From Escherichia phage vB_EcoP_G7C, in sequence record NC_015933.1: a stretch of DNA of 64,000 nt; one strand, written 5' to 3'. Each line of letters opens with the position of its first letter. Positions within the stretch are counted from its first letter, which is position 1. The position numbers and the translations under genes were made by a program. Of the stretch, positions 2,000 through 25,172 are shown in pieces. The notes beneath the pieces were generated by a model. It made no database searches. It was not told the origin of the DNA and saw only the letters and a program-made list of their open reading frames with translations.

Positions 2000-2476
2000 A
2001 TGAACTGGCATGAACTATTTGTTTATAGCAATGGTTCCCTTTACTGGAAAGTAAGTAGGGGCTGCGTAAAAGCAGGTGCCATTGCTGGTTGTTTGGATAA
2101 CAGCGGGTATTTGCGTGTTAAATGTAATAGAAAAAATCATTTAGTTCACCGCATAATTTATGAAATGGAAATTGGTCCAATTCCTGATGGTATGCAGGTA
2201 GACCATATTGACCACAATAGGCTAAATAATTACCCAAGTAATTTCCGTTTAGTAACAAACATGGTTAATAGTAAAAACCAAACCATGAGAGTAACAAATA
2301 CATCAGGTGTGACAGGAGTATACTGGCACACTCGGGATAAAATTTGGACTGCCCATATAAATGACAATGGTAAACAAATTTACTTAGGAAAATTTAACAG
2401 TAAACAAGAAGCCATTTCAGCCAGAAAGGAAGCAGAAAAATTATTGGGCTACCATATAAATCATGGGGAACCCTAA
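2000..2476 (+). CDS. HNH homing endonuclease with AP2 DNA-binding domain
   Basis: HNH core VDHIDHNRLNN; AP2-like GVTGVYWHTRDKIWTAHIN…GKFNSKQEAISARKEAE. Confidence 0.85.
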   Translation: MNWHELFVYSNGSLYWKVSRGCVKAGAIAGCLDNSGYLRVKCNRKNHLVHRIIYEMEIGPIPDGMQVDHIDHNRLNNYPSNFRLVTNMVNSKNQTMRVTNTSGVTGVYWHTRDKIWTAHINDNGKQIYLGKFNSKQEAISARKEAEKLLGYHINHGEP

Positions 2477-3651
2477 TGAATAGTATACCTACGCATACTC
2501 TCACTGATGAACGGTTAATGAGGGAGTACGATAGAATACAAGCGCAGGCATTTCTCGGACGTAGTGCAGCGTTTTTTGGTTCATTGCTGTGTAGTCTTAA
2601 GTTCTCATGGAAACGTGAGGGCTGTCCCACTGCATGTACCGACGGGATAGAACTCCATTTCAACCCAGACTTCTTTATCTGGATGTGTCCTGATGCAAGG
2701 GAAACAGTGCTAATGCACGAACTTTGGCATGTGGCATATCTGCATGGAATCCGTTGTGGAAGCCGTGATCCAGAAGTCTGGAACCAGGCATGTGACCACT
2801 TCATTAACCTTCAGTTAGAGGAAGATGGTTACAAGTTCACTGGTATCGACAAAGGCATTTGCAAAGACCCTCAATATAAAGGATGGGTCGAAGAAGACAT
2901 CTACGATGACCTGATGAAGAACCCTCAGAAAAGGCAGAAGCCGTCGGGGGGAGCTGGAGCAGGTCTTGCTGGCGACATGAAAGCTCCCTCTTCGGGGCAG
3001 TCCCAGGGTGCTGTTGTCAACAACGTAGTACGTGCAATACAAAGCCAGAAGATGGCTGGTGGAACGATGCCCGGTAAAGGTGCTGGTCGTATGGAAGAGG
3101 TTATTACCCAATTCCTTAAACCAGTGGTTCCGTGGCAGGAAGTCCTGATGAACTTCTTTACCGACATTGATGATACGCATTATACGTGGGCCAGACCCAA
3201 CCGTCGTTTCACTGACGTCTATCTACCTTCTCTGGAAGATGATGAAGGACGTTTACGACACTTAGCCTATTTTGAGGATGTATCCGGTTCTATTAGTAGT
3301 GCTGACTCTCTGCGTTTTAACTCAGAGGTTGCCTACGTTAAGAGCCAGTTCAATCCTAAGAAGATGACCCTAATTACCTTCGACGATATTATCCAAGAAG
3401 AAATAGACATCACTGAAGAAGATACTTTTGAAGAGATTAAGATTACTGGACGAGGGGGTACAAACCTTGAACCAGTGCGTGAATGGATTATTAAGAATAA
3501 GCCAACCGCTGCAATCATATTCTCTGATATGTATGTTCGCCCTATGGAAGATTTACCATTTGATATTCCTATCATCTGGTGTGTTCTGAATAATCCTAAT
3601 GCTACCGTACCTTTTGGGGAGGTAGTTCATATCCCTAAAGGAATGAAATAA
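2476..3651 (+). CDS. VWA-domain protein with N-terminal HExxH metallopeptidase-like domain (partner of the MoxR-like ATPase)
   Basis: HELWH zinc-binding-type motif near N-terminus; MIDAS-like DVSGS; start overlaps HNH stop (TAATG). Confidence 0.8.
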   Translation: MNSIPTHTLTDERLMREYDRIQAQAFLGRSAAFFGSLLCSLKFSWKREGCPTACTDGIELHFNPDFFIWMCPDARETVLMHELWHVAYLHGIRCGSRDPEVWNQACDHFINLQLEEDGYKFTGIDKGICKDPQYKGWVEEDIYDDLMKNPQKRQKPSGGAGAGLAGDMKAPSSGQSQGAVVNNVVRAIQSQKMAGGTMPGKGAGRMEEVITQFLKPVVPWQEVLMNFFTDIDDTHYTWARPNRRFTDVYLPSLEDDEGRLRHLAYFEDVSGSISSADSLRFNSEVAYVKSQFNPKKMTLITFDDIIQEEIDITEEDTFEEIKITGRGGTNLEPVREWIIKNKPTAAIIFSDMYVRPMEDLPFDIPIIWCVLNNPNATVPFGEVVHIPKGMK

Positions 3652-4157
3652 TGATTGTTAATGGTAATTCTCTATACCGTTCATCTCAATTGCTGGATGT
3701 CCCAGACCGTAAGGTATCCGAGCATGGTGTAAGCTATGGATTAGGTGAAGCTGGTTATGATATTCGTATCAAACAAGACATTACCTTCTATCGCTTATTT
3801 GGGTTAATTCCAATGGTGAAAATCGTCGATGGAAAACAAGTATCACGCCATCTCGGTAAATTCGCATTAGCTTCAGCAATTGAGAAGTTCAACATGTCAC
3901 CCTCGTGTGTAGCTATCGTTCACGATAAGTCCACATGGGCAAGACGTGCATTATCTGTGTTCAATACCGTAATAGAACCAGGATGGAAAGGGTATCTTAC
4001 CCTTGAACTGGTCTATCACGGTCGTAAGAAACTGCATATCCCGGCTGGTGCTGGGATAGCTCAAGTATTATTTCATCTGGTTCAAGAGCCTGCTAATTAC
4101 AACGGCAAGTATCAGAATCAGGAGGACAAACCAGTAGCTGCAAGAAGCAGTAAATAA
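3651..4157 (+). CDS. dcd: dCTP deaminase / dUTPase-fold enzyme
   Basis: dUTPase-superfamily motif IEPGWKGYLTLEL; 168 aa, size typical of dCTP deaminase. Confidence 0.65.
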   Translation: MIVNGNSLYRSSQLLDVPDRKVSEHGVSYGLGEAGYDIRIKQDITFYRLFGLIPMVKIVDGKQVSRHLGKFALASAIEKFNMSPSCVAIVHDKSTWARRALSVFNTVIEPGWKGYLTLELVYHGRKKLHIPAGAGIAQVLFHLVQEPANYNGKYQNQEDKPVAARSSK

Positions 4158-4166
4158 GGAAACAAC

Positions 4167-4367
4167 ATGTCTGTATTTCAAGTAACTCCTGTTGATAGTA
4201 CCCAACGTAAAACTATTGTTGCAACTAATGTAGTAGATGTAGATGAAACCCCAGCTGGTGCTGTAATCCATCTGATTGATGGGCGAACTGTAACTGTAAA
4301 AGAAAGCTATCGTTCAGTACGTGGTTACGTCCGTAAAGCTTTAGCTGCTGTCTCTGATGCAGAGTAA
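4167..4367 (+). CDS. Hypothetical protein
   Basis: ORF with AAGGAAA RBS. Confidence 0.5.
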   Translation: MSVFQVTPVDSTQRKTIVATNVVDVDETPAGAVIHLIDGRTVTVKESYRSVRGYVRKALAAVSDAE

Positions 4368-4440
4368 GTAGCTGCCTAAATAGCCCAACTATGCTGGGCT
4401 ATTTGTGAAGAAACTAACTCAACCTCACATAGGAACCATC

Positions 4441-4701
4441 ATGGAATCTTTAGCAGCAATCCTCGTTCTGTTATTTGCACTTGCTATATACCTTATCCCT
4501 ACTATTATTGCTTTTGCACGAGGCCATGCCTCTAAGTGGGGCATTGGTATACTCAATATCGTATTAGGCTGGTCTTTAGTCTTCTGGGTAGTAGCACTGA
4601 TTTGGTCACTGTCTAACAAAGGGCAGTCTCAGACTACAATCGTTAACGTTGGCAGTGGTAACCAGTACAACGTGTCTCAAACGAGCCAGTCTGATAAGTA
4701 A
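4441..4701 (+). CDS. Small membrane protein (two TM helices)
   Basis: ATG at 4441 with AGGAAC RBS (ORF-track start 4405 is GTG); hydrophobic helices LAAILVLLFALAIYLIPTIIAF and GIGILNIVLGWSLVFWVVALIW. Confidence 0.55.
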   Translation: MESLAAILVLLFALAIYLIPTIIAFARGHASKWGIGILNIVLGWSLVFWVVALIWSLSNKGQSQTTIVNVGSGNQYNVSQTSQSDK

Positions 4702-4824: not shown

Positions 4825-5268
4825 ATGCGTATCCCATTCCTAAGAAAAAGGGAACGGAATCCTGTTCTTTATAATAAAGGCATAGAGGATGAGTATGAAC
4901 TCAACCGTAAGGCCCGTTCCTACGCAGCAAAATTATTCATGGGGACTAGCAACCCTAATAGATTACTGGACTTTGTTTTCGAACAAGTCTTTATCATATA
5001 CAGCTTAGCTATGTCTGCTGGTTCACAAGAAGTAAGTGATAAGGCAAGATATGCTCTCTGTATGCTCCGGAAAGAGTATGAAGCCCTCCTGTATGAAGAC
5101 TTGTACTCCTTTAAGAAAGAAACCGCTGTAGCGTGTTCTGTGGCTCTTACTGAAGGTATAGCAGTATTACAAGAACTACCTCGTAGTGAGTTTAAGCTGG
5201 TATATGCCCAGGCCAGGAGAATTACAGAAAACCGAAGTGGTATTACCAACTATCTAAGGTCATTCTAA
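4825..5268 (+). CDS. Hypothetical protein
   Basis: ORF track; coupled to thyX by TAATG overlap. Confidence 0.55.
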   Translation: MRIPFLRKRERNPVLYNKGIEDEYELNRKARSYAAKLFMGTSNPNRLLDFVFEQVFIIYSLAMSAGSQEVSDKARYALCMLRKEYEALLYEDLYSFKKETAVACSVALTEGIAVLQELPRSEFKLVYAQARRITENRSGITNYLRSF

Positions 5269-6212
5269 TGATTAAGGCAACTGTCATTGCAGATTCCGTT
5301 CATCATGTAACGGGTACTCGTATTACTACCTTTGAATTGGTTTATCCTCGATTCATTCACAGTGAGTTTATGACCCACCGTGTATTCAACCGAAATGCTT
5401 CAAGTAGTCGTGCTATCCCTACTTCTAAGTTCATAGAACAGGTTCGTAATGAACCAGTGATGCCAAGTCACTGGGGCAAGAACCAGAAAGGTATGCAGGC
5501 ATTTGAAGAATTGTCTGAAGACCAACGTAGTGATGCAACCTTTATCTGGGAACAGGCTGCATCCAGTGCTGCTACCTATGCAGAAATGCTTCGTCGTGGA
5601 CAAGTACATAAGCAGATTGTTAACCGTATTCTGGAACCATTTACGCATATCCGTGTAGTGGTAACTTCAACTAGCTGGGCTAATTTCTATGGCTTACGTG
5701 ACCATGAAGATGCTCAACCAGAGATTCGTGAACTGGCTCAAGCAATGCGTAAGGCTCATAATGAAAGTGTTCCATCTAAGCTGTCCCAAGGTGTGTGGCA
5801 TCTGCCTTATATTCGCAAGATTGATTGTATTAACGCTTACGATCATTGCAAACATCAACGAGTTACTTGTGATAAACCAAGTGATGAAGAAGTTTTAGGC
5901 TTACTGCTTAAAGTCTCTGCTGCTCGCTGTGCACGTGCCTCCTATAACAACTTTGAAGGCAAGCCATCTACTATTAGTGATGACCTTGCCCTCTTTGCTA
6001 AGTTGGTAGAGAAACAACCAATTCATGCGTCACCTACTGAGCATCAAGCTACCCCGATGGACTTCAGTACCAAGTTTGTTAACAACCAGAACCCATTAAC
6101 CTGGGAACAAGGTGTTACCTCTATGGACCGTGAAGGTAAGCTGTACTCAGGCAACTTACTGGATTTCATCCAATTCCGTAAACTAATACCCGGAGAAACA
6201 ATTACAGAATGA
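5268..6212 (+). CDS. thyX: Flavin-dependent thymidylate synthase (ThyX-like, divergent)
   Basis: ThyX-like HR…S…S.R signature in MTHRVFNRNASSSRAIP and C-terminal DAQPEIRELAQAM resembling the ThyX HAQWEIR region. Confidence 0.65.
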   Translation: MIKATVIADSVHHVTGTRITTFELVYPRFIHSEFMTHRVFNRNASSSRAIPTSKFIEQVRNEPVMPSHWGKNQKGMQAFEELSEDQRSDATFIWEQAASSAATYAEMLRRGQVHKQIVNRILEPFTHIRVVVTSTSWANFYGLRDHEDAQPEIRELAQAMRKAHNESVPSKLSQGVWHLPYIRKIDCINAYDHCKHQRVTCDKPSDEEVLGLLLKVSAARCARASYNNFEGKPSTISDDLALFAKLVEKQPIHASPTEHQATPMDFSTKFVNNQNPLTWEQGVTSMDREGKLYSGNLLDFIQFRKLIPGETITE

Positions 6213-6445
6213 AACGTTTAGCTATCCAAGCTCTATTTATAAGTATCATCCTGGTTCTGGAATTTGTATTTGCACTACATGGTGCACAGAGCCTGGAAGA
6301 GATGTTCTTCGTAGTAGCCCGTTTCTCTGCGTGTGTTCTTGGCTTGTGGTGTGTGTATTACTATGCACGAGATTACGCAGCCATTAAGGAACATGATGAT
6401 GCTAAGGAACGTCTACGACAATTCGTAGAAGAGAATCGTAAGTAA
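6209..6445 (+). CDS. Small membrane protein
   Basis: Two hydrophobic segments; ATGA overlap with thyX stop; followed by terminator. Confidence 0.5.
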   Translation: MKRLAIQALFISIILVLEFVFALHGAQSLEEMFFVVARFSACVLGLWCVYYYARDYAAIKEHDDAKERLRQFVEENRK

Positions 6446-6450
6446 ACCTA

Positions 6451-7391: not shown

Positions 7392-9956
7392 ATGTTAGTC
7401 GCAGATACCAATCAATCAGCCACTTCAGCGACACTGGGTGGCAAAGAAGCAATCGCTTTTGCCATCTCAGATGACCCGGCATTCTTTCATGTATTAAGTA
7501 CCTCCTTGTATAACAACCCTACTCTGGCAGTAGTCCGTGAGACTATCTGTAACAGTTGGGATGCTCATATTGAAGCAGGTAAGACTGATACTCCTATCCG
7601 TATTACTATTGATACAGACAATTTTATTACCTTCCGTGACTTCGGTAATGGGATACCAGATGAACTCATTGGTTCCATTTATGGTGTCTACGGTGCATCT
7701 ACCAAGAAGTCCAACAGTAGTGTTACTGGTGGCTTTGGTTTGGGATGTAAATCCCCATTCGCTTATACAGATAGCTTCCAGGTTACTTCATGGAACCAGG
7801 GAAAGATGTCAGTATATAACGTAGCTAAGGCTGCGATTGAGAATGATGGTAAACCGGGTATTGTTCCTATTGTTACTGGTATTCCTACTGAGGAATCTGG
7901 TCTGGAAGTTAAATTCCAGCTAGGTAAACATGATGTGAATACCTTTGTACATTACATCACGTCAATTGTATTTAACGGTGAGATTAAGGCTGAGCTTAGT
8001 ATTCCCAAACTTGTTCGTGAAGAAACAGGTAATAGTATTCAGCAGGGTAACTATACTCTACTGAATACGCTAGGTATGTCATTTGAACCAGGTTCATATG
8101 ATATGTCTGATAAATGGTATCAAGGCTATATGGGTAACAGCACCATCTTTGTTCGCTACGGTAACGTAATGTACCCAATAGTATCTAGCCCGGCTAGTGA
8201 AGAGGCTGTAGGTCTTATTCTCAACTTCATGAATATCATTGGAGCTGATAATTTAGTAGTTCAGGCTGCACCAGATACCTTAGCTATTGCCCCTAGTCGT
8301 GAAACGCTGTCTAACCAGAAGTTAACCGACGATGGTATTACTGCTCTATGCGTAGATTTAGTAGACCGTATGGAGAAAGAGATTAAGGCTAAGATTCCTG
8401 AAGCTATTAAGCAGGTTGAAGAATATGCCTCCCAATCTTCTACTCGTGACTGGGAATATCCTGCTTTCTTAAGTGCTGTTACAGACAGAACTGTTCAACG
8501 CTATATGTCCTCTAGTTTGTGGGCTAAGCAGCGTAAACATCATGTTAAGCACTGGCGTAATCTATCCAATAAGGCATTACTAGCTCGCCCTGAATATGCA
8601 GGGCTTAAAAAACTGTATAGTAAGGCTATGCGTGCTCTTAAGTGTACGCGTGAAGATAAAACATACTATCAATTCCAGGATTTAGTATATCGGCATCTGC
8701 ACTTACCTCAGCTTGCTGCTTTAAAAGCTACAGGTATTAAGTGGTCTGGTTACATAATGAACCAGGGTAGCAGTGTTGGCCTGGTAACAGGTAAACTTAC
8801 TGACTACTTTAAGATGGGCTATAACAGCCATTTGGGTATCGGTATATTCACTACCAAGAACGTTGTAGTTACAAGACGTTTATCTGACTGTGCAGACTCT
8901 TTTTCATACTTCCCTGATTACACCCAAGGTGATCTGAAGCGTACAGCTTTTGTTCACGTCGTTGGTCCTAAGAAAGGAGAAGCAGAAAAAGCTGTAGCTA
9001 AGTTCTCTGCTATGGGTTATCGGGTAATTGACCTTACTCAATACAATGAGTGGGACAAGCCAACTAACTTCCGCAGGGAACAGGCTAAGATAGCTGCTGA
9101 GAAGCGTGCTAAGACAATAGCTGCCAATAAAACCAAAGCAGGGGGTAAAACTAATGCACTGGTTTCATTGAATGCAGTACTTGGTACTACCCCTGTACGA
9201 GATAAAAGCGGTGATTTGGTATCTAAACCATACATTGACAAGGATTTTGCTGACCCAAGATTCCATGAGGAACCTAGATTCGTTGAGGTGGATCTGCCTA
9301 AGTACTACGTACCAGCCAGTCAGGTTGTTTCTGGTAGACCAGCAACTGCCAAGATTGGAACCATGTGGAAATGGTATGAATTATCCGATGAGATGAAAGC
9401 AGAAACTGTTGTCTGTCGTAATCAAATCGAAGTTAACAAAGCCAAACGTCGTGGTGCTATTCACATTGACGATATTCGTCTTAATGAATTGATGTCTGTT
9501 ATTACCAGCAAGGGATTCAAGAAGTACGCCACTGAACAACGTAACGGTGTTCTTGAGTATCTTGATTTAAATGACAAAGAATACTGTGAAATCCTCGACA
9601 TTCTTGGACTAACATTCAAACCATTACAGAGTCTGGTTCTTAAACCAGAGTACGAATGGGCATGTGACTTCCTAAGAAATCATTCAAGTAACAAAGATAA
9701 ACTGGTTGAGATGGGCCTCATTAAGTCAGTAGATGACTTGGAACCATATGTAAGGATGGTTAATCCTCGTATGCATAAGTATTTCAAAGTACTTAACGAG
9801 TACAAAGGGTTATTTAGATATAGCTGGAATGATAATGACATCCTGCAAAGCCTGGATTTGAGTAGATTAATCAAACATCTCAAGAAAAATCCAGAGGATA
9901 TTCCTGGGTTTAAGCCCCTCTACCGTAATCGTTTAAATAAACTGAAAGGTAAATAA
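7392..9956 (+). CDS. rIIA: rIIA-like protein with N-terminal GHKL/HATPase-type ATPase domain
   Basis: GHKL N-box/G-box-like motifs (NSWDAHIEAG…RDFGNGIP…GGFGLG); 854 aa; GGAGAG RBS. Confidence 0.65.
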   Translation: MLVADTNQSATSATLGGKEAIAFAISDDPAFFHVLSTSLYNNPTLAVVRETICNSWDAHIEAGKTDTPIRITIDTDNFITFRDFGNGIPDELIGSIYGVYGASTKKSNSSVTGGFGLGCKSPFAYTDSFQVTSWNQGKMSVYNVAKAAIENDGKPGIVPIVTGIPTEESGLEVKFQLGKHDVNTFVHYITSIVFNGEIKAELSIPKLVREETGNSIQQGNYTLLNTLGMSFEPGSYDMSDKWYQGYMGNSTIFVRYGNVMYPIVSSPASEEAVGLILNFMNIIGADNLVVQAAPDTLAIAPSRETLSNQKLTDDGITALCVDLVDRMEKEIKAKIPEAIKQVEEYASQSSTRDWEYPAFLSAVTDRTVQRYMSSSLWAKQRKHHVKHWRNLSNKALLARPEYAGLKKLYSKAMRALKCTREDKTYYQFQDLVYRHLHLPQLAALKATGIKWSGYIMNQGSSVGLVTGKLTDYFKMGYNSHLGIGIFTTKNVVVTRRLSDCADSFSYFPDYTQGDLKRTAFVHVVGPKKGEAEKAVAKFSAMGYRVIDLTQYNEWDKPTNFRREQAKIAAEKRAKTIAANKTKAGGKTNALVSLNAVLGTTPVRDKSGDLVSKPYIDKDFADPRFHEEPRFVEVDLPKYYVPASQVVSGRPATAKIGTMWKWYELSDEMKAETVVCRNQIEVNKAKRRGAIHIDDIRLNELMSVITSKGFKKYATEQRNGVLEYLDLNDKEYCEILDILGLTFKPLQSLVLKPEYEWACDFLRNHSSNKDKLVEMGLIKSVDDLEPYVRMVNPRMHKYFKVLNEYKGLFRYSWNDNDILQSLDLSRLIKHLKKNPEDIPGFKPLYRNRLNKLKGK

Positions 9957-9960
9957 TCTG

Positions 9961-14737: not shown

Positions 14738-17317
14738 ATGCGTTACATCACCTCTCAGGATACTGGCAAGTATCCTATTGCTATCCTCGGTCATCAAATC
14801 CGAAGGGAGGAGATGATTAAAACCTACCTGCTGCCTTATGACCTAAGCATGGAAGATTTCATCTTCCTTGAACTTCATTCTGCCCCTGGCAAGAAGAAGA
14901 CCCCTGCAAGGGAGATTAAGGAGTTCATACAGCAGGAACTACAGCAAGTACTGGATGATGCAGAGACTCAATACATTATCTGTACCGATTCTGACTACTT
15001 CAAAATACTGACTAAAGAAGCTAAAGCAGAGGCTAACCTCGGCTATGTTTGTGATTCAGTATGGGGTAAGCAGAAGGTTATCTATACACCTAGCTACAGA
15101 CAGGTCTTTTATGACCCACCTGTAGTGAAAGCCAAGATTGCTCAGGGAATGGATGCATTACTTAACCACATTCGCGGACAGTATGCTGAACCAGGGCAGG
15201 GAATCATTGAGTTTGAAGCCTACCCAGATACACCCGAAAAGATTAAAGCCTGGTTGGACCAGTTGCTTGAGATGAATAAGCCTCTGGCTATAGACATCGA
15301 ATCATTCGGTTTAAAGCACTATAACGCAGGCATAGGAACGATTACGTTCTGTTGGAGTAAGACACAAGGCATAGCCTTTAATGTGGACTACGAGCCAATT
15401 AAGGGAGCTACTGAAGCACCTTATGGGCGTATAAACAGGAATGATGTTGTTCGTAACCTGTTACGCGAGTTCTTCATTAAGTACACCCAACGGCAGATGT
15501 ATCACAACATTAGCTATGACGTGTACATACTTATCTATCAGTTATTCATGGATAACCTGATTGATACGGAAGGCTTACTACATGGCATGGAAATCATGCT
15601 ACGTAACTGGGACTGTACTAAGTTAATCACCTACCTGGCTACTAACAGTTGTGCCGGTAATCACCTTAGTCTGAAAGACCAGGCTCAGGAGTATGCTGGT
15701 AACTATGCTCAGGATGATATTAAAGACATACGTCTTATTCCTAATGAGCAACTGTTACGCTACAACCTCATTGATGGTTTGTGTACGTGGTACACCTACG
15801 AGAAGCACTGGGATACTCTCATTGCTGATGACCAACTAGATGTTTACAACAACATCTTTAAACCAGCCTGTGAAGACATTATTCAGATGCAGTTAACCGG
15901 TATGCCCATGAATATGGAAACCGTTAACCAAGTGGCTGAAGAGATGGAAACTGACAGGAACCAGGCTTTGAAAACTATTCGTGAGTCTAAGCTCATGAAG
16001 AATTTCACCCTGATGCTTCGTCAGGAATGGGTAGACGATAAGAATGCTAAGCTTAAGAAGAAGCAAGTAACATTGGCTGATTGTGACATTGAGTTTAATC
16101 CTAACTCCGGTCCTCAATTACAGAAACTGTTATTTGATTATATTGGCTTACCGGTTCTTGGTCTTACTAAGAGCAAGCAACCTGCTACTGACGGTGACAC
16201 TATTAAAGCACTGCGTACACATACGCAGAGTGAAGATGTTAAGGAACTGCTCAATGCACTTATCGACTATAAACTCGTGGATAAGATTATCACTAGTTTT
16301 ATACCAGCTTTCAGGAATGCCCAACCGGGGCCGGATGGCTGGCACTATCTGTTCGGAAACCTCAATCTGGGAGGCACAGTCTCCGGTAGGCTATCGGCTT
16401 CAGAGCCAAATCTACAAACAATTCCATCCGGTTCTAAATATGCCAAGAAGATTAAGAAATGCTTCGAAGCCCCTCCTGGCTGGATATTTTGCGGTTTGGA
16501 CTTCGCCTCGCTGGAAGACAGAATATCTGCATTGACTACCAAAGACCCCCAGAAGCTGAAGGTGTATACCGATGGCTATGATGGTCATAGTCTTCGTGCG
16601 TATGCTTACTTTGGTGAGCAGATGCCAGACATAGTAGACACAGTTGAGTCAATCAATTCTATTCAGACGAAGTACAAGCACTTGCGTAGTGATTCTAAAG
16701 CCCCAACTTTCTTGCTTACCTATGGTGGCACGTACATGGGCTTGATGAAAAACTGTGGCTTCTCAGAAGAGAAAGCTAAGACAACAGAGAAACGTTATCA
16801 CGACCTCTATGTAGTTAGTGATGCGTGGGTTCAGGCTAAGCTAGATGAAGCTGCCAAAACTGGTTATGTTACTGCTGCATTTGGTTTGAGAGTGCGTACT
16901 CCTTTACTGGCTCAGGTATTACGTGGGACATGTAAGACTCCATATGAAGCAGAAGCTGAAGGTAGGACTGCTGGTAATGCCTTGGGGCAAAGCTGGTGTC
17001 TACTGAATAACCGTGCTGGTTCAGAATTTATGCGTAAAGTCAGAGCCAGTGAGTTCAGATTAGATATACGCCCTAGTATTCACATTCATGATGCTCAGTA
17101 CTTCATGATTCGTGACAATATGGATACCTTGCAGTACACGAACAAGCACTTGGTGGAAGCCGTTAACTGGCAAGACCATCCTGATATTGCTCATCCAGAA
17201 GTTGGTTTGGGTGGGGAACTATCCTTGTTTTACCCAACGTGGGCTAACGAGATTGAGATTCCAAATCACGCTACCCCAGAAGAAGTTCATCAAATAATTC
17301 AAAAGGCATTCGCATGA
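14738..17317 (+). CDS. DNA polymerase, family A (Pol I-like) with 3'-5' exonuclease domain
   Basis: Exo motif DIESFGL; Pol motif A DFASLEDR, motif B KAPTFLLTYGG, motif C IHIHDAQYF. Confidence 0.92.
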   Translation: MRYITSQDTGKYPIAILGHQIRREEMIKTYLLPYDLSMEDFIFLELHSAPGKKKTPAREIKEFIQQELQQVLDDAETQYIICTDSDYFKILTKEAKAEANLGYVCDSVWGKQKVIYTPSYRQVFYDPPVVKAKIAQGMDALLNHIRGQYAEPGQGIIEFEAYPDTPEKIKAWLDQLLEMNKPLAIDIESFGLKHYNAGIGTITFCWSKTQGIAFNVDYEPIKGATEAPYGRINRNDVVRNLLREFFIKYTQRQMYHNISYDVYILIYQLFMDNLIDTEGLLHGMEIMLRNWDCTKLITYLATNSCAGNHLSLKDQAQEYAGNYAQDDIKDIRLIPNEQLLRYNLIDGLCTWYTYEKHWDTLIADDQLDVYNNIFKPACEDIIQMQLTGMPMNMETVNQVAEEMETDRNQALKTIRESKLMKNFTLMLRQEWVDDKNAKLKKKQVTLADCDIEFNPNSGPQLQKLLFDYIGLPVLGLTKSKQPATDGDTIKALRTHTQSEDVKELLNALIDYKLVDKIITSFIPAFRNAQPGPDGWHYLFGNLNLGGTVSGRLSASEPNLQTIPSGSKYAKKIKKCFEAPPGWIFCGLDFASLEDRISALTTKDPQKLKVYTDGYDGHSLRAYAYFGEQMPDIVDTVESINSIQTKYKHLRSDSKAPTFLLTYGGTYMGLMKNCGFSEEKAKTTEKRYHDLYVVSDAWVQAKLDEAAKTGYVTAAFGLRVRTPLLAQVLRGTCKTPYEAEAEGRTAGNALGQSWCLLNNRAGSEFMRKVRASEFRLDIRPSIHIHDAQYFMIRDNMDTLQYTNKHLVEAVNWQDHPDIAHPEVGLGGELSLFYPTWANEIEIPNHATPEEVHQIIQKAFA

Positions 17318-17619
17318 CTAAAAGTACTAAAGAAACCATCGTCAAAAAATATCATTGGATGGTGGCAGCACAGGTAATCTTCCAGCTCCCTAAAGCTGAT
17401 GATGGTTCTCTGCTTACCATGAACACAATGCTGCTCACTACCGAACCTCATGTGACCTATAAAGATTTGGCTCGTGCCAATCATTCCCTGAAAATTAGTC
17501 TGGACCAGCGTTTCGACACCTCAGTTGACCTGAAAGACATTGTTTATCTGTCTCTTAGCAACCTGGGTCTGATGTCTGAACCAGAGTTCCAGGCAAACAT
17601 GATTCCCAAGGGGGAATAA
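17314..17619 (+). CDS. Hypothetical protein
   Basis: ATGA overlap with polymerase stop. Confidence 0.55.
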   Translation: MTKSTKETIVKKYHWMVAAQVIFQLPKADDGSLLTMNTMLLTTEPHVTYKDLARANHSLKISLDQRFDTSVDLKDIVYLSLSNLGLMSEPEFQANMIPKGE

Positions 17620-18089
17620 TGACTAAGCTCTCCGGTGGCCTTAATAACTACTATGTAGTTTCAATTAAGAATCCCCAACGGAAAGAGCAAGAGCCATATC
17701 AAGCAGAGTGTGAGGATATTATCCAAGCACTGGGCATGACCTTCGATGAAGGTTGTGCCTTTAAAGCTCTATGGCGAAATGCTGCTGCCCGTATGGGTAA
17801 TGGTAAACCAGGTAATAAAGCCCTGTATGACTGTGAGAAGCTAGTTCATTACGCTAATCGTATTCTCGCTAAAGAAAGGTTAGCGGAGGAACCAGCAGTC
17901 AAAGATGTCCTTAACTCTGTGTGTAATAATTGGATTTACTCTAACGAGAAACCTCTGCTCACTAAACCATTTACGTTTATTGAGGTTATCTTCAAAGACC
18001 AGACTATCCCTATTCCAAGCACTTACCTTGCGAATAACATTGGAGCAATTCCTTGGGATAATGTACAGAAATACAGGATTACTTACTGA
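17619..18089 (+). CDS. Hypothetical protein
   Basis: TAATG overlap; GGGGGA RBS. Confidence 0.55.
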   Translation: MTKLSGGLNNYYVVSIKNPQRKEQEPYQAECEDIIQALGMTFDEGCAFKALWRNAAARMGNGKPGNKALYDCEKLVHYANRILAKERLAEEPAVKDVLNSVCNNWIYSNEKPLLTKPFTFIEVIFKDQTIPIPSTYLANNIGAIPWDNVQKYRITY

Positions 18090-18160
18090 TGAAGATAACC
18101 AACAACCATGATGTCTCACTAGCTCTGGCTGTATGGCTATTGCATGATGAGTAACTAATT

Positions 18161-18658
18161 ATGAAACAGAGGATTGCCCATGACAGGCTTTTACAGCTTG
18201 TTAGTTATGACCCTATTTCCGGAATTTTTACTCGTAGGAATACCGGAAAGGTATCCGGTTACCTAATGAAGAGTGGTTACGTTCAACTCCGTGTGGATAG
18301 TGTGTTGTACTATGGGCATATCCTTGCATGGTTCTATGTGCATGGCGTATGGCCTACGGATAGGATTGACCATAAGGACAATATACGCCATCACAACTGG
18401 ATAGATAACCTCAGAGAAGCGACCCACAAGCAGAATAACCAGAGTGCTGTTTTATCTAAAACAAACACATCTGGGTTTAAGGGTGTCTCCTTTTCAAAGA
18501 ATATGGGTAAGTACAGAGCAACTATTTGGGTTAATAGCAAACCAATTACATTAGGTTACACAGATAACCCAATAGAGGCTGCTGTTCTCTACGATGAAGC
18601 TGCTGTAACTCATTATGGTGAGTTTGCCAAAACCAACAAACAATTAGGACTGTTATGA
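18161..18658 (+). CDS. HNH homing endonuclease with AP2 domain
   Basis: HNH-type RIDHKDNIRHHNWIDNL; AP2-like GFKGVSFSKNMGKYRATIWVN…LGYTDNPIEAAVLYDEAA. Confidence 0.8.
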   Translation: MKQRIAHDRLLQLVSYDPISGIFTRRNTGKVSGYLMKSGYVQLRVDSVLYYGHILAWFYVHGVWPTDRIDHKDNIRHHNWIDNLREATHKQNNQSAVLSKTNTSGFKGVSFSKNMGKYRATIWVNSKPITLGYTDNPIEAAVLYDEAAVTHYGEFAKTNKQLGLL

Positions 18659-19635
18659 AACTTACTAACAATCATGATGTTAGTCTTGCACTAGCTGTTT
18701 GGCTTGTTACAGATGATTATGATTACGTAGACAATCCTAAGTACCTGTCTGCTACCACATTGCTTAAGCCCATTAAGCAAATCGTCATGAAGCATCGTGT
18801 AGATTTTAGTGACCAGTCAATTGATGTTATGGATTTCGTATCCACATCAATGGGTACTGGCTTACATGATTCTATCGAGAAAGCCTGGAAGCTAGGCCAT
18901 AAGACTGCATTGAAGAAGCTGGGTTATCCTCAGCGAGTAATTGATGCAGTAGTCATTAACCCAACCAAAGAAGACTTTGCTGCTAACCCTGACCTTATCC
19001 CAATCTACATTGAACAACGTGGAACCAAGCAGGTTAAGGGATGGACTATTGGTGGTAAATTCGACATCGTAACGGAAGGTCTGTTGCAAGACTTCAAGTC
19101 TACCTCAACCTATTCCTGGGTTGCTGGTTCCCGTGATGATGAACACAAGATGCAAGGCAGCTTGTACCGTTGGATTCACAACGACATCATTACTGAGGAT
19201 GTAATTCGTATTAACTACATCTTCACCGACTTCATGAAACACATGGCTAACAGCAATCCGAACTATCCTGCTAATCGTATTATGCATAAGGATATTCCGT
19301 TACTGTCTGTCGAGAAGACTGAACGTTGGGTGGAAGAGAAGATTCACTTAATCGAAAAGTACTGGGATGCACCTGAAGAGGAAATCCCCGAATGTACTGA
19401 CGAGGAGTTGTGGCGAACAGAGCCACAGTTCAAATACTTCTCTGATGCTTCTAAGGTAGATGTACCTGGAGCCAGAAGTACCAAAAACTTTGGCGATATG
19501 GCATCTGCCCGTATCTTCATGGCTGAAAAAGGTGGCAAGGGTGCTATCAAGGTTGTGGAGGGGCAGGTTAAACGCTGTTTATATTGCCCTGTCGCATCCA
19601 TTTGCAAACAAAGAGAGAGATATTTTCCATCATGA
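18655..19635 (+). CDS. PD-(D/E)xK nuclease with C-terminal Fe-S cluster cysteines (Cas4/RecB-like exonuclease)
   Basis: Motif II FDIV, motif III QDFK, QxxxY (QGSLY), four Cys including C-x2-C-x5-C at the C-terminus (CLYCPVASIC). Confidence 0.65.
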   Translation: MKLTNNHDVSLALAVWLVTDDYDYVDNPKYLSATTLLKPIKQIVMKHRVDFSDQSIDVMDFVSTSMGTGLHDSIEKAWKLGHKTALKKLGYPQRVIDAVVINPTKEDFAANPDLIPIYIEQRGTKQVKGWTIGGKFDIVTEGLLQDFKSTSTYSWVAGSRDDEHKMQGSLYRWIHNDIITEDVIRINYIFTDFMKHMANSNPNYPANRIMHKDIPLLSVEKTERWVEEKIHLIEKYWDAPEEEIPECTDEELWRTEPQFKYFSDASKVDVPGARSTKNFGDMASARIFMAEKGGKGAIKVVEGQVKRCLYCPVASICKQRERYFPS

Positions 19636-21785
19636 GCATTGACCTTACCGGAGTAGTGCATCATCCAGCGATTGAAGAAATCGTAGATGTGCTCTGCAAT
19701 AAAACCCAGAATAACGACCGGGGATTCTTCCGTGTCGAAGTAGCCTACTTCTTGGCTAAAATGGCATCCTGCATGGGTGCAACCATCGTAACTAAAGACC
19801 GTGGTGACCTGCCGGTAAACATCTACGCTATGGCGTTGGCTACATCTGGTTTCGGTAAAGGTCACTCGGTAAATATCATTGAAGACGGGTTCATGACTGG
19901 CTTCCGTAAACGTTTTATGGAAGACACCATGCCCGTCATTGCAAATGACCGTTTATGGAAGATTGCTAACGAACGTGCTGCTCGTCAGGGTACAGACCAG
20001 AATGATGAGTTCGATAAAGTTGAAGCAGAGTATAAGCGTGCTGGGGCATTCCCATTCACATTCGACTCTGGTACAGCACCTGCTGTAAAACAGCTTCGTC
20101 ACAAGCTGCTTATGGCTGGTTGTGGTGCTATTAACTTACAGATTGATGAGATTGGTTCCAACCTCATTGCCAACGTTGAAGTTCTTAACCTGTTCCTTGA
20201 GTTGTATGACCAGGGGAAAGTAAAACAGAAGTTAACCAAGAACACTGCTGAAAGTATTCGTGGTGAAGAACTGGATGGTAAAACTCCTGCTAACCTGCTG
20301 CTGTTCGGTACTCCGAGTAAGTTGCTGGATGGTGGGCAGACTGAAGACCAGTTCTATGACTTCCTCGATACAGGATATGCACGTCGTTGTCTGTTTGCCA
20401 TTGGGCACTTAGACAAGCGAGCGCATGCAACGATGACTCCGGAAGAAATCTACCATAACCTGATTAAGCAGGATAACGTTCAGTCTCTTGGTAAGTGGGC
20501 TAACCACTTCCATAGTCTGGCTGACCCAAACCTGTTTGGCTTTAAGATGATTGTGGAAGATGCAGTGGGTATTGCTCTGATTGCTTACAAAATTGATTGT
20601 GAGAAACAAGCAGAAGCTATGGCTGACCACGAAGAAATTCGTAAGGCTGAAATCTCCCACCGTTACTTCAAGGCTCTTAAGCTGGCAGGTGCACTGGCGT
20701 TTGTTGACCAGAGTTCATTCATTGAGATGTCTCACCTTAAACAAGCAATCCTGCTCGTAGAAGAATCCGGAGCAGCATTCCAGGGTATTCTCAATCGTGA
20801 GAAAGCCTATGTGAAGCTGGCTAAGTACATTGCCTCTGTGGGCAAAGAGGTTACTCATGCTGACTTGCTGGAGTCATTACCATTCTATAAGAGTGGTAAT
20901 GCAGCTCGTAATGAGATGATGACTCTTGCTACAGCATGGGGTTACAAACAGCACATCATTATTAAGAAGACCTTCAATGAAGGCATTGAGTTCTTCCGTG
21001 GAGAGACTCTGAAAGAGACTGACACCAATGAGATGATAGTGGCATATAGTGATAGCTTTGCTTATGACTATGTTGGTGAACGTGTACCGTTTGACCAGCT
21101 ACATGTATTAACCCAAGCTCCCGGTATGCACTGGGTAAACCATCACATGAAGAATGGGCATCGTTCTGAAGAGAACGTTATTCCAGGATTTAACATGATT
21201 GTTATTGACTGTGATGGTGGAGTACCTCTGCATACGTGCCATGAACTGATGAAGGAATATAAGTTCATGACCTATACCACTAAGCGTCATACCGATGAAG
21301 AGAACCGCTTCCGTCTGATTATTCCAATGAACTATGAGTTACACCTTGATACTGAGGAATACAAAGAGTTCATGAATAACGTTATGGCTTGGCTACCATT
21401 CGAAACGGATGAGTCTGCTAACCAACGAGCCAAGAAGTGGATGTCCTGTGAGACTGGTTCCTATCATTACAACCTTGATGCGAATCTGTTGGATGTACGT
21501 GACTTTATTCCTCGTACCAGTAAGAACGAGCAGTTCCAGAACCAGATGAAGGAAGTACAGTCGTTGGATAATCTGGAGCGTTGGTTCGCTGGTCGTATTG
21601 CCTCCGGTAATCGTAATAATCAAATGATTAAGTACGCACTGGCATTAGTAGACAGTGGTTGGGACTTTGCTCAAGTACAGCAAGCCGTCTACTCATTCAA
21701 TAAGAAACTGGCTAATCCATTACCAGATGATGAATTGAATTCAACCGTAATGGTCACCGTGGCTAAACGCTTCGCTGGCAAGTAA
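19632..21785 (+). CDS. Putative DNA primase / replication initiation protein
   Basis: Large ORF between nuclease and ATPase/SSB genes; ATG at 19632 overlaps upstream stop (ATGA); function assigned by position in an N4-like replication module, no unambiguous motif. Confidence 0.5.
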   Translation: MSIDLTGVVHHPAIEEIVDVLCNKTQNNDRGFFRVEVAYFLAKMASCMGATIVTKDRGDLPVNIYAMALATSGFGKGHSVNIIEDGFMTGFRKRFMEDTMPVIANDRLWKIANERAARQGTDQNDEFDKVEAEYKRAGAFPFTFDSGTAPAVKQLRHKLLMAGCGAINLQIDEIGSNLIANVEVLNLFLELYDQGKVKQKLTKNTAESIRGEELDGKTPANLLLFGTPSKLLDGGQTEDQFYDFLDTGYARRCLFAIGHLDKRAHATMTPEEIYHNLIKQDNVQSLGKWANHFHSLADPNLFGFKMIVEDAVGIALIAYKIDCEKQAEAMADHEEIRKAEISHRYFKALKLAGALAFVDQSSFIEMSHLKQAILLVEESGAAFQGILNREKAYVKLAKYIASVGKEVTHADLLESLPFYKSGNAARNEMMTLATAWGYKQHIIIKKTFNEGIEFFRGETLKETDTNEMIVAYSDSFAYDYVGERVPFDQLHVLTQAPGMHWVNHHMKNGHRSEENVIPGFNMIVIDCDGGVPLHTCHELMKEYKFMTYTTKRHTDEENRFRLIIPMNYELHLDTEEYKEFMNNVMAWLPFETDESANQRAKKWMSCETGSYHYNLDANLLDVRDFIPRTSKNEQFQNQMKEVQSLDNLERWFAGRIASGNRNNQMIKYALALVDSGWDFAQVQQAVYSFNKKLANPLPDDELNSTVMVTVAKRFAGK

Positions 21786-22634: not shown

Positions 22635-23438
22635 ATGTCACTGTTCAGTAACTTGAAAGAAAAGACCAAAAACGTTGAAGCTGTAAAAGACTCCCTTGGT
22701 GGTGGTGGCTTCGGTGCAAAAGAATCCGATATCTACACCGGTACTGTAAAAGTAGCTTATGTAGGTAAAGCTGACTCTGGTGCAGACTGGATGCAGTTAA
22801 TCATTGAAAACCTGAAAGGTTCTGACGGCAATGATGCTGGTGAGTTCCGTGCTCAGGTGTACTTTACTTCTGGTAATGCTAAAGGCAATAAGCCAACTTA
22901 CGAGAAGAATGGTAAAGAGTACTTCCTGCCTGGTTACACTGTCATTAATGACATGATGCTGATGGCTACTGGTTGTGAACTGCCAGATGCAGACTTCGAA
23001 GAGAAGATTGTTAAAGTCTATGACTTCGATCTGAAAGCTGAAACCAATAAATCTGTCATGGTTCCAGTTGACCTGGTTGGTCAGACTGTTACCTTCGCTC
23101 TGGAAAAGGTTCTGGAAGCTAAGCAGGTTAAAGGTGACAACGGTTACGTTGACTCCGGTGAAACCCGTGAAGTAAACGAGATTCAGAAAGTGTTTCACCC
23201 GGAACTGCTGGTCACAGTCGTCGAGGCTCAGGAAGCAGAGAAGGCTGAGAAAGAACTGACCCCAGAACTGGCTGTATTCTACGGAGCATGGCTGGAAAAG
23301 AACAAAGGTAAAACCCGTGATAAGACCAAGGGTTCTGCTGGTGGTAATGGTAAAGGTGGCTTGCCTCCTAAACCAGGTGCAGGTGCTGGCACGGGTACTA
23401 CTCCAGCTGGTGGTAAATCTCTGTTCGGTAAGCGTTAA
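22635..23438 (+). CDS. Putative single-stranded DNA-binding protein (by position), Gly-rich termini
   Basis: 267-aa ORF with AGGAAAAA RBS; Gly-rich C-terminal tail; assignment by synteny. Confidence 0.45.
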   Translation: MSLFSNLKEKTKNVEAVKDSLGGGGFGAKESDIYTGTVKVAYVGKADSGADWMQLIIENLKGSDGNDAGEFRAQVYFTSGNAKGNKPTYEKNGKEYFLPGYTVINDMMLMATGCELPDADFEEKIVKVYDFDLKAETNKSVMVPVDLVGQTVTFALEKVLEAKQVKGDNGYVDSGETREVNEIQKVFHPELLVTVVEAQEAEKAEKELTPELAVFYGAWLEKNKGKTRDKTKGSAGGNGKGGLPPKPGAGAGTGTTPAGGKSLFGKR

Positions 23439-23992
23439 TGAAAATCCCAATTGTCGGTGCAGACATTAGCCTCCGCAATTGGGGATTAGCTCGTGGGATG
23501 CTGGACATTGAGTCCGGCGTCTTCGAGCAGGTCGAACTTAAACTGGTTCAAACTGAAGTTGACCACAACAAACAAGTTCGAACCAACTCCAAAGATATAC
23601 AAGCTGCCCATGATTTGTTTCTTGGTTGTGAGGAATGGTTACGGTCTGCTAAAGCAGTATTCGTAGAAGTACCAGTAGGCTCTCAGTCTGCTAATGGAAT
23701 GAAGTCCTATGGTGTATGCGTAGGATTAATTGGTGCATTCCGTGCATTGGGTTGTCCAATCTTTGAAGTATCCCCAATTGAAAACAAACTTGCACTGGTC
23801 GGCGATAAAACTGCATCAAAAGACACGATGATTCGTGCTGCTCATGCCATCTATCCTGAAGCCAACTGGCTCACGGATAGTAAAGGTAAACTTCTGAATA
23901 AGAATGAGCACTTAGCTGATGCAATCGGTGCAATCCACGCTGGTGTAAATCTCCCAGCTTTCCAGAATCTCATTAAATTAATAAAGGCATAA
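23438..23992 (+). CDS. RuvC-like Holliday junction resolvase
   Basis: N-terminal IVGADISLRNWGLA resembles the RuvC catalytic-Asp strand; C-terminal HLADAIGAIHAG resembles the RuvC D..A.A motif. Confidence 0.5.
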   Translation: MKIPIVGADISLRNWGLARGMLDIESGVFEQVELKLVQTEVDHNKQVRTNSKDIQAAHDLFLGCEEWLRSAKAVFVEVPVGSQSANGMKSYGVCVGLIGAFRALGCPIFEVSPIENKLALVGDKTASKDTMIRAAHAIYPEANWLTDSKGKLLNKNEHLADAIGAIHAGVNLPAFQNLIKLIKA

Positions 23993-23993
23993 T

Positions 23994-24443
23994 ATGCAAA
24001 TCGTTCTGAACCAGTCTGAAGTAGAAGCTGCTATTGAAGCTTATGTAAATGAACAGGTTAATCTTGCCGGGGACATTAATATCCTGGTGAATGCAGATGG
24101 TACTGCCACCATTGGCATCAATGAAGAGGCCGGTCATAGTGATGACACTCCCCCCGTGGTAGAGAAGAGGACTCGTCGTTCTCGTAAGAATCCACAAGAA
24201 GCCAAACACCGTCCGGTAGAACCAGAACCAGTTGTTGGGGATGAAACTGAAGAAGAGGTAAAGGAAGAAGAAACCCAGACCTCTACTGGTGGTGTGAACG
24301 AGAGTTCTACGCCGGAACCTGAAGAAGCAGTAGCTGAACCAGAAGCACAAGAAGAAGTTGTGCAGGAGGAAGTTAAGGCAGAAGAACCAGCAGAGAAACC
24401 TGCTGCGAAGCCTTCACTGTTCGCTGGCCTAAAACGTAGTTAA
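23994..24443 (+). CDS. Acidic Pro/Glu-rich protein
   Basis: C-terminal half is E/P/V-rich low complexity. Confidence 0.5.
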   Translation: MQIVLNQSEVEAAIEAYVNEQVNLAGDINILVNADGTATIGINEEAGHSDDTPPVVEKRTRRSRKNPQEAKHRPVEPEPVVGDETEEEVKEEETQTSTGGVNESSTPEPEEAVAEPEAQEEVVQEEVKAEEPAEKPAAKPSLFAGLKRS

Positions 24444-24674
24444 TCTGGTAGGTGGCTCAGAAGCTGCTGCTAGGTGTGGTAGTGTTTATAGTACTGATGC
24501 TACTACTGGTCAGGATTATAGACGTGTCGGCTCCATACATAGCTTTTATCATCACTGTCATTATCCTGTGGAAATGCAGTGGTAAACACGGTGGTGACAA
24601 GCCGCCAGAATAACAACAACCGAGCCAGAGAGTTTTAATACTCTCCGAAGCTCTCTGGTTCATCTGAGGTATTT

Positions 24675-25172
24675 ATGAGCAAGCCATTAGGATACTGGAA
24701 TAAACCTGCCCATGAACTCGCTGTAGTACATTCTCCCGATGATGCCAATGCAAAGGATGGATACATCAGTATTAAACGTCATGGGGTGAGGGTATTTCTG
24801 CACAACTGGATTTGGGAATACTATAATGGACCAATCCCGGATGGGTATGAAGTTGACCACATCAATGGAATCCCAACTGATTGTCGACTTATTAATATGA
24901 GACTGGTGTCCCATATGATTAACTGTCGCAATCGTCGCAAAAGAATTGACAATACATCCGGCGCTACCGGTGTGTATAGACAATGGAAGAAGACTAATGA
25001 ATATTGGACTGCTGCTTGGAATGACCCGCATACAGGTAAGCTACGAACTAAAAGCTTCAACATTGGTGTTCTTGGGGATAGCGAAGCCAAAGATGCTGCT
25101 ATAGCATACCGGGCTACTATAGAAGCAGACCTGGTAAAGAATCACAACTACACCTTACGCCATGGAAGATAA
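24675..25172 (+). CDS. HNH homing endonuclease with AP2 domain
   Basis: HNH-type VDHINGIPTDCRLINMRLVSHMINCRN; AP2-like GATGVYRQWKKTNEYWTAAWNDPHTGKLRTKSF. Confidence 0.8.
   Translation: MSKPLGYWNKPAHELAVVHSPDDANAKDGYISIKRHGVRVFLHNWIWEYYNGPIPDGYEVDHINGIPTDCRLINMRLVSHMINCRNRRKRIDNTSGATGVYRQWKKTNEYWTAAWNDPHTGKLRTKSFNIGVLGDSEAKDAAIAYRATIEADLVKNHNYTLRHGR

Follow-up and report, generated by a model that had tools for sequence, protein, structure and literature searches.

Three free-standing HNH-AP2 endonuclease genes and their insertion sites in the early region of a Gamaleyavirus genome

Three endonuclease genes of one family

The DNA considered here is a stretch of 64,000 nucleotides from Escherichia phage vB_EcoP_G7C (NC_015933.1), hereafter the window, which comprises the early region and more of a Gamaleyavirus (N4/G7C-like coliphage). 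This genus contains the G7C/N4-like podoviruses of E. coli and Shigella and belongs to the family Schitoviridae. A megablast search with the first 25 kb of the window returned 51 phage records with at least 80% coverage, and the top-ranked matches, at approximately 90-94% identity, were all Gamaleyavirus, with Mimir124, Bas96, F22 and PhAPEC7 the best among them. Three small open reading frames (ORFs) in this region, which we refer to as homing endonuclease gene (HEG) 1, HEG2 and HEG3, had been described in a first-pass annotation of the window as paralogous mobile elements, each combining an HNH nuclease core with an AP2-type DNA-binding domain. The coordinates given there are exact and all three ORFs lie on the + strand (Table 1). 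Copies nearly identical to each of them are already annotated in GenBank as HNH homing endonucleases.

The nuclease core is well supported in all three proteins. Their scores against Pfam HNH_3 (PF13392) of 64.1 (HEG1), 36.9 (HEG2) and 62.2 bits (HEG3) are all above the gathering score of 24.8, and each matches phrog_99, 'HNH endonuclease', with E-values between 1e-34 and 1e-63. They have in common the pattern D-H...N...R...N, in which D68, H69, N81 and N90 (HEG1 numbering) are invariant and align with D74-H75, N87 and N96 of I-HmuI; phmmer aligned the HNH core with I-HmuI over the same D-H...N...N residues (E 7.4e-5). We take these residues of the beta-beta-alpha-metal type to act as they do in I-HmuI, that is as a general-base histidine following an aspartate, a structural asparagine and a metal-binding asparagine. 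All three ORFs are full length with intact catalytic residues.

The scores against Pfam AP2 (PF00847) are 30.0, 20.8 and 28.7 bits for HEG1, HEG2 and HEG3, respectively. These are significant (E 6.5e-7, 4.8e-4 and 1.7e-6) though all below the gathering score of 33.3, and so the presence of the domain was judged by structure and not by Pfam alone. HEG2, as the weakest AP2 match, was chosen for AlphaFold2 modelling, using an alignment of 90 homologues over which its D70-H71 pair is invariant. The model, with a predicted local distance difference test score of 96.6, ends in a three-strand sheet and helix (strand-strand-strand-helix, residues 109-155) that superposes on AtERF1 (1gcc) with a root-mean-square deviation of 1.7 Å over 57 columns, a target template modelling score of 0.73, 32% identity and a probability of 1.00, and that also matches the AP2 domain of TEM1 (7et5) and ERF96 (5wx9), each with a probability of 1.00. 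Over its N-terminal half the model resembles I-HmuI (1u3e), with a Foldseek probability of 1.00 and a deviation of 2.8 Å over 86 columns. HEG1 matches the AP2 domain of WRI1 by sequence (E 1.5e-3). The fold of the HEG2 model and the significant Pfam E-values together bear out the AP2 assignment in each ORF, and the domain is predicted to be a sequence-specific DNA-binding module.

The description of the genes as paralogous needs qualifying: they belong to the same family, but a pairwise protein identity of 29-41% in the alignment makes them distant members of it and not recent duplicates of one another. No family members beyond these three were found in the 64-kb window by tblastn. HNH-AP2 genes are among the commonest accessory genes of phages and their kind is well known; we recovered 258 homologues at E <= 1e-5, approximately half of the best 120 of the 258 having precomputed PF13392 and PF00847 matches, and tblastn found relatives of HEG1 in 3,643 of 50,697 phage records and relatives of HEG3 in 1,627. 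A packaging HNH protein of the HK97 gp74 type was considered and ruled out, since the genes lie in the early, + strand, replication-side operon far from the late genes and the HNH_3 plus AP2 family is not terminase-associated. As regards base composition, the G+C content of HEG1 (36.5%) is lower than that of the early region (43.4%), from which HEG2 (41.4%) and HEG3 (43.6%) do not differ.

Occupied and empty sites among relatives

Each HEG was searched with 700 bp of flank per side against the phage collection, and all Gamaleyavirus records returned both flanks, most of them with a shorter span between, indicating an empty site. Merging duplicate records left approximately 40 distinct phages, and the early regions of 16 relatives (L001-L016) were fetched and aligned at each site. 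This comparison of the flanking junctions, which the first-pass annotation had proposed, yielded precise endonuclease-free alleles at all three sites, with indels of 472 (HEG1), 566 (HEG2) and 533 bp (HEG3). The outcome named there as speaking against mobility, a homologue at the same position in every relative and nowhere an empty site, was not obtained: most relatives are empty at each site. The HEG1 site is occupied in 9 of the approximately 40 phages (some 31 are empty), with close copies in four UE phages and Mimir124 and a divergent occupant in PD38, Bp4, Uz-1 and Moonfish; amino acid identity to HEG1 at this site is 94% in the UE-M6 group, 77% in Mimir124 and 56-60% in PD38, Bp4 and Moonfish, the copies in Bp4 and Moonfish are frameshifted, and 11 of the 16 fetched relatives lack the gene with a clean 472-bp gap. 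Eight phages (Mimir124, Bp4, Uz-1, PD38, ECBP1, PW8, 24-32N and EC1-UPM) are occupied at the HEG2 site and approximately 32 are empty, with 92-98% nucleotide identity among carriers. At the HEG3 site the only other carrier is ZQ2 (98.2% amino acid and 97.8% nucleotide identity), leaving approximately 39 empty.

The HEG1 block of 472 bp (about 1999-2470) is bounded by a 6-nt repeat, ATGAAY. It is inserted at codon 2/3 of gp25, such that the HEG1 start takes over the former gp25 start and the HEG1 TAA overlaps the new gp25 ATG (TAATG). Empty genomes align only from 9-30 nt into gp25, and the eight fixed differences between occupied (6) and empty (11) genomes all fall at 2482-2523, which corresponds to gp25 codons 3-16 (within its first 48 nt), with no fixed difference in the other ~2350 of ~2,400 flanking positions. 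This recoded block stands directly against the insertion, in the position predicted for a target or immunity tract, making 2482-2523 a candidate recognition or cleavage region in empty alleles and a putative immunity variant in the window. The eight differences may be one linked block, which would then count as a single event. No HEG-less allele with a HEG1-type gp25 5' end was present in the phage collection.

The HEG2 junction is the most informative of the three. In HEG-less genomes the exonuclease ATG overlaps the gp41 stop and the protein begins MKITNNHDVSLALAVWLLHDE, followed by YDYVDNP. In the window these original codons 1-21 survive as a stub (18089-18151) that is identical to the intact exonuclease 5' end of HEG-less SP5M at 63 of 63 nt and is followed by TAA, a 6-nt spacer (CTAATT) and HEG2. 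The inserted block of 566 bp (18152-18717) consists of TAACTAATT, HEG2 and a recoded version of exonuclease codons 1-21, whose ATG overlaps the HEG2 stop (ATGA). This second copy, MKLTNNHDVSLALAVWLVTDD, is in frame with codon 22 and shares only 43 of 63 nt with the stub but 17 of 21 amino acids; immediately after it, identity to HEG-less genomes is back to 96-98%, and the exonuclease gene, at 981 nt, has the same length as in genomes without HEG2. The alignment thus places HEG2 within the exonuclease gene after codon 21, with the gene predicted to be restored as a single polypeptide. Stub and recoded duplicate are present in all five of the fetched HEG2 carriers, and the other three carriers have spans of equal length.

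Two genomes, NAN33P5 and K57alpha1.2, have no HEG here and nevertheless contain the recoded segment, as a hybrid in which ATGAAGATA is joined directly to ACTAACAAT... Such an allele could have arisen if the two copies recombined with each other and the HEG was lost, or if a cut was repaired and the gene was not copied. Two N4-like contigs that are more distantly related have a gene of 56% identity at this gp41/exonuclease junction, with no stub, and in the N-termini of their exonucleases (WLVRD and WLVDD) they are closer to the recoded copy than to the resident one. As donors of the recoded segment these contigs were not supported, since at the nucleotide level the 5' ends of their exonuclease genes are not close to it. 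The window has no insertion at the nearby exonuclease/primase junction (~19632), where an HNH gene of 512 bp with 51-52% identity to HEG2 is present in ZQ2 and UE-M6; primase nt 9-29 (the first ~10 codons) are recoded in these two phages relative to all genomes that are empty there, and the window has the unrecoded form.

Upstream of the HEG2 target, the gp41-like gene has a C-terminal half that is hypervariable across the genus, with 56-98% (mostly 66-82%) identity over 17761-18160 and small indels. Its segment 17883-18086 is deleted in ZQ2, Bas96, F22, Moonfish and pSb-1, and SP5M is an exception to the variability, with 90-98% identity in this tract directly 5' of the target. Regarding K57alpha1.2, its record (OY979416.1, Klebsiella phage vB_Kpl_K57alpha1.2) bears the labels 'portal protein', 'virion RNA polymerase' and 'tail spike' on matches to early genes; features and sequence in this record appear to be out of register, and a host label of 'Klebsiella' is also odd beside 93% identity to coliphages.

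At the HEG3 site, which lies at an operon end between small ORFs of unknown function, the inserted element of 533 bp (about 24640-25172) interrupts an intergenic hairpin. The hairpin of empty alleles is 15 bp long, with AATACTCTCC as its loop, and its calculated fold energy ranges from -23 to -27 kcal/mol in F22, Bas96 and SP5M. The window and ZQ2 have a hairpin of the same size 5' of HEG3, with the 10-nt loop AATACTCTCC and a fold energy of -25.0 kcal/mol, the central stem of which differs from the empty-site version by compensating changes. A fragment of the old loop with the 3' arm (ACTCTCCCCAGTCCATTGGTTC) persists after the HEG3 stop and is identical to the matching part of the empty-site hairpin in Mimir124, Bas96 and KKP3715. 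HEG3 has its own ribosome-binding site, GAGG. Further downstream, nine of 14 annotated fetched relatives have one to three tRNA genes (Ile, Cys, Val) 1-4 kb 3' of this site (for example L003 29172-30024, L004 28489-29479 and L005 29798-29882), and ARAGORN found no tRNA genes in the 64-kb window.

These junctions alter how the location of the genes should be described. The first-pass annotation placed them at junctions of conserved replication genes, which is apt for HEG2 (flanked by the genes for the gp41-like protein and the gp42 exonuclease, with the primase gene further downstream) but not for HEG1, which stands between an ATPase and a DUF2201/VWA protein of unknown role, nor for HEG3 with its hairpin. 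Its statement that they sit between and not within genes does not survive the comparison at two of the sites, as HEG2 interrupts the original exonuclease 5' end and HEG1 enters gp25 near its start. Judged by the anatomy, with no Rfam search made, an intron- or intein-encoded status is ruled out, as the genes have their own start and stop codons and the inserted blocks of 472-566 bp are nearly all ORF; splicing is likewise ruled out, the host genes being restored via an overlapping new start codon.

Table 1. Features of the window at and around the three endonuclease genes; gene names were carried over from annotated relatives, with N4 numbering, and then checked with Pfam and PHROGs
Feature	Position	Strand	Remarks
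gp24-like AAA ATPase	944-1996	+	5' neighbour of HEG1; Pfam AAA E 2.4e-6; phrog_1297 ATPase E 4.5e-134; annotated in relatives as similar to N4 gp24
HEG1	2000-2476	+	158 amino acids; HNH_3 + AP2
gp25-like DUF2201 metallopeptidase/VWA-like protein	2476-3651	+	3' neighbour of HEG1; Pfam DUF2201_N E 1.3e-54, DUF2201 E 2.9e-34
dCTP deaminase	3651-4157	+	
ThyX	5268-6212	+	
rIIA and rIIB	7392-12006	+	
Helicase	12877-14187	+	
DNA polymerase	14738-17317	+	
gp41-like protein	17619-18089	+	phrog_9919; N-terminal half resembles 3'-phosphatase/5'-polynucleotide kinase family
Exonuclease stub ORF	18089-18154	+	21 original codons, then TAA
HEG2	18161-18658	+	165 amino acids; HNH_3 + AP2
Recoded exonuclease codons 1-21	18655-18717	+	overlaps HEG2 stop
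gp42-like exonuclease	18655-19635	+	326 amino acids; phrog_2139 exonuclease E 7.6e-152 over residues 1-325
Primase	ends 21785	+	
Sak4-like protein, then SSB	3' of primase	+	
RuvC-like resolvase	23438-23992	+	
Protein of unknown function	23994-24443	+	small ORFs after it
Replacement hairpin	24622-24661	+	upstream of HEG3; 15-bp stem, 10-nt loop
HEG3	24675-25172	+	165 amino acids; HNH_3 + AP2
Remnant of original hairpin	25173-25194	+	downstream of HEG3

The same family occurs elsewhere in the genus at sites that are empty in the window, namely before or inside the RNAP2 gene, inside gp24, after the dCTP deaminase gene and at the gp35/gp36 junction, in addition to the exonuclease/primase junction. 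The gene for the gp24 AAA ATPase is interrupted twice in NAN33P5, by ~870 bp each time, and in pSb-1 by 681 and 187 bp (L006 and L015; window points ~1141-1146, 1258 and 1591). Both phages give weak HNH-family matches there, and this further intron or endonuclease site is unoccupied in the window. Intron-like insertions with endonuclease ORFs were also seen in the DNA polymerase gene of PhAPEC7, SP5M and Moonfish (not Bas96) and in the gp44 (Sak4-like) gene of PhAPEC7, SP5M and Bas96 (not Moonfish), located at 17011-20296 and 24252-25800 in L010 and at 24283-25831 in L005, and found also in L011 and L014; both genes are uninterrupted in the window. Regarding the gp25-like gene, phrog_1314 and several RefSeq records label it 'HNH endonuclease', against the Pfam assignment as a DUF2201_N metallopeptidase/VWA-like protein. 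This label on gp25 homologues is probably an annotation error, perhaps propagated from adjoining endonuclease genes.

Lateral movement and its likely mechanism

We compared the distribution of the genes with a neighbour-joining tree built from eight core genes. The window groups with Bas96, KKP3715, NAN33P5, PhAPEC7, F22 and SP5M (92-94% core identity), none of which carries any of the HEGs, and all HEG carriers other than Mimir124 fall in the other clade, which includes UE-M6, Bp4/PD38/ECBP1/24-32N and ZQ2 and has 88.6-89.7% core identity to the window. HEG3 is 97.8% identical to its ZQ2 counterpart at the nucleotide level, with ~89% in both 1-kb flanks, and HEG2 is 98.2% identical to that of Mimir124, with 85.6% in the left flank. 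At 98%, both match their counterparts in these phages more closely than do the core genes, at 89-92%, and given this excess over flanks and core they look to have been recently transferred; HEG1 looks older or turned over. Long tracts of raised identity, as would be left by co-conversion, were not seen in the 1-kb carrier flanks of HEG1 or HEG3, and HEG2 showed only a sharp left breakpoint. Patchy presence, precise empty alleles, discordance with the core tree, decayed copies and a HEG-less recoded allele all uphold the earlier description of the genes as mobile elements, and arrival by homing is supported by the comparison of genomes.

The explanation we consider very likely is that these three ORFs belong, as free-standing HEGs, to the HNH_3 plus AP2 family widespread in phages, and that each entered this lineage separately by recombination with a HEG-carrying, co-infecting relative. 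During a mixed infection, the AP2 domain, aided by the N-terminal strands, would place the I-HmuI-like HNH site on a HEG-less allele, and the enzyme would nick or cut the unrecoded allele at or beside the insertion point. The break would then be repaired by phage recombination functions with the HEG-bearing genome as template, such that repair copies the HEG plus a short adjoining tract. Comparison of the junctions shows each cassette to bring a diverged but, as predicted from the alignments, functionally equivalent replacement, comprising the first 16 codons of gp25, codons 1-21 of the exonuclease or the 15-bp hairpin, and this recoding would render the carrier immune to its own enzyme with the host function kept. 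At HEG2, the endonuclease gene and the adjoining exonuclease 5' end would have come from a different lineage; the stub would record where an illegitimate left junction first formed, at the cut site or close to it, and the whole arrangement would then have spread via homologous recombination. HEG1 and HEG2 are probably translated by coupling to their neighbours via the stop/start overlaps, and HEG3 would be translated from its own ribosome-binding site.

A more specific proposal, which we regard as tentative and on balance doubtful, concerns the nature of the mobile unit. This may be the HEG together with a recoded, equivalent copy of the segment that bears its target (the first codons of the downstream gene, or the hairpin), so that the original is left as a dead stub and host function is rebuilt and carrier immunity gained in one step, with no intron, intein or gene splitting. 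It would draw on the stub and duplicate at HEG2, the hairpin and remnant at HEG3, and the recoded 5' ends at the HEG1 and exonuclease/primase sites.

Several considerations weigh against entry by separate homing events. Cleavage, the cut position and the choice between a nick and a double-strand break are all extrapolated to these enzymes from sequence. HEG1 shows no excess conservation, being 91.6% identical to the UE-M6 copy in flanks of 92%, and is only 63-74% identical at the nucleotide level to the other occupants of its site. Since it is no better conserved than its flanks and same-site copies are very divergent, HEG1 may instead be an old resident that descended vertically and was repeatedly lost. 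The substitution clusters at HEG1 and at the primase site could each represent a single co-converted donor block and not selected immunity. Finally, the genus is highly mosaic, and discordance with the tree does not by itself prove endonuclease-driven transfer.

The same features of HEG1, along with the frameshifted copies in Bp4 and Moonfish, would be expected if the genes were relics, that is former homing endonucleases, now immobile, that are carried passively or are kept as their deletion would harm downstream start signals. The overlap of downstream start codons with HEG stop codons fits with this, and the patchy distribution would then result from ordinary recombination and deletion in a genus that recombines heavily, as seen in its per-bin identity and in published work (10.1101/542787). 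We nevertheless find this explanation improbable: the ORFs in the window are full length with their catalytic residues intact, the identity of HEG2 and HEG3 relative to the core indicates recent spread, and a HEG-less allele with the recoded segment is the leftover expected of encounters with an active enzyme.

It is also conceivable that the proteins mainly serve the phage, either in the exclusion or degradation of competing relatives or as AP2-type regulators of early or middle genes, with homing as a side effect. Homing endonucleases are known to give their carriers a competitive edge, and there are cases in which their domains were co-opted in conflicts (PMC10448857; PMC13096335 for SegB). 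The AP2 fold binds DNA in a sequence-specific manner, and the genes presumed to contain the targets, that of the exonuclease and, at the neighbouring site, that of the primase, are conserved or look essential. Against this, most relatives, including the closest to the window, lack all three genes, which are therefore dispensable. A purely regulatory role is unlikely because the nuclease residues are strictly conserved. The anatomy is the one that plain homing would give, and nothing in the sequence separates it from a phage-serving role. Overall we judge a primarily phage-serving role to be very unlikely, and favour separate entry of mobile endonuclease genes.

The genes had also been said to mark recombination hotspots, and here the picture is mixed. 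Per-bin identity does reach minima beside HEG1 (2401), in the stretch preceding HEG2 (17801-18001) and, at 4201 and 12401, where other genomes have an occupied site, but further minima at 5801-6400, 9201-9800 and 11601-12000 have no endonuclease gene in the sample, and the association is correlative only. Identity to the 16 relatives in these last three intervals and in bin 12401-12600 is 74-84%, relative to a median of 93%; bin 12401 is an endonuclease site used in Mimir124, NAN33P5 and pSb-1.

Relation to known homing systems and wider meaning

We know of no HNH-AP2 member with a mapped cleavage site in an N4-like phage. A closely comparable enzyme is I-HmuI of Bacillus phage SPO1 (1U3E), which has the same HNH_3-type catalytic core but resides inside a group I intron and carries a C-terminal NUMOD and helix-turn-helix, whereas the genes in the window are free-standing, have an AP2 domain and lack an intron. 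I-HmuI is a strand-specific nicking enzyme (see also reference B90 of PMC2988022), and for this reason nicking rather than double-strand cutting is plausible here as well. Examples in which an endonuclease travels with a piece of the host gene, protecting the target and preserving the product, are T4 mobA with the 50-nt gene 60 bypass element and an Allomyces mitochondrial endonuclease ORF with a foreign atp6 C-terminus. The former relies on translational bypassing and in the latter it is the 3' end that is replaced, whereas in the window the replaced piece is a 5' end or a hairpin, with the old 5' end left at HEG2 as a short terminated ORF.

The combination of HNH and AP2 is itself a recognised HEG architecture, as stated in PMC10448857, which cites Magnani et al. 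2004. The HNH plus AP2 HEGs of phages, cyanobacteria and ciliates, and the 'IPA-HNH' genes of Vibrio phage ICP1, are like those in the window in having an N-terminal HNH and C-terminal AP2 domain, in being small free-standing ORFs beside conserved genes and in their patchiness; the ICP1 genes are too divergent for Pfam HNH_3, unlike the genes in the window, which match it directly. Mechanistically, the model is the 'intronless homing' of the T4 seg and mob genes (PMC2988022). These genes (SegG/gene 32 and MobE/nrdB, for example) are similarly promoter-less cassettes between conserved genes, with targets in the neighbour, co-conversion of flanks and carrier resistance by target polymorphism. 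T4-type examples are either intergenic or split a gene into two polypeptides, as with Aeh1 mobE and T4 mobA (PMC2988022), whereas HEG2 would restore a single polypeptide. A duplicated, recoded gene end accompanying a free-standing phage endonuclease was not described in PMC2988022 or in the remainder of the literature searched, which was an incomplete sample. Among G7C-like phages from horses, 22 indel loci have been reported, mostly involving genes of unknown function or related to HEGs, together with insertions in RNA and DNA polymerase genes (bioRxiv 10.1101/542787).

Since the kind of gene is familiar, what is added here is the anatomy of the junctions and the prediction of targets. For the three enzymes, targets are predicted in codons 3-16 of gp25, where codons 21 and 22 of the exonuclease gene meet, and in the 15-bp hairpin, and natural susceptible, occupied and resistant-empty alleles exist that could serve as substrates. 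The anatomy accounts for the 21-codon stub ORF and for split or shifted gene calls in relatives, and may explain the 'HNH endonuclease' labels on gp25. These HEGs may mark where much of the small-scale mosaicism arises in a genus that is used therapeutically. If replacement of the target-bearing segment by a recoded copy were true across the thousands of phage HNH-AP2 genes, it would represent a fourth way for HEGs to occupy essential targets, and target sites would then be predictable from sequence alone.

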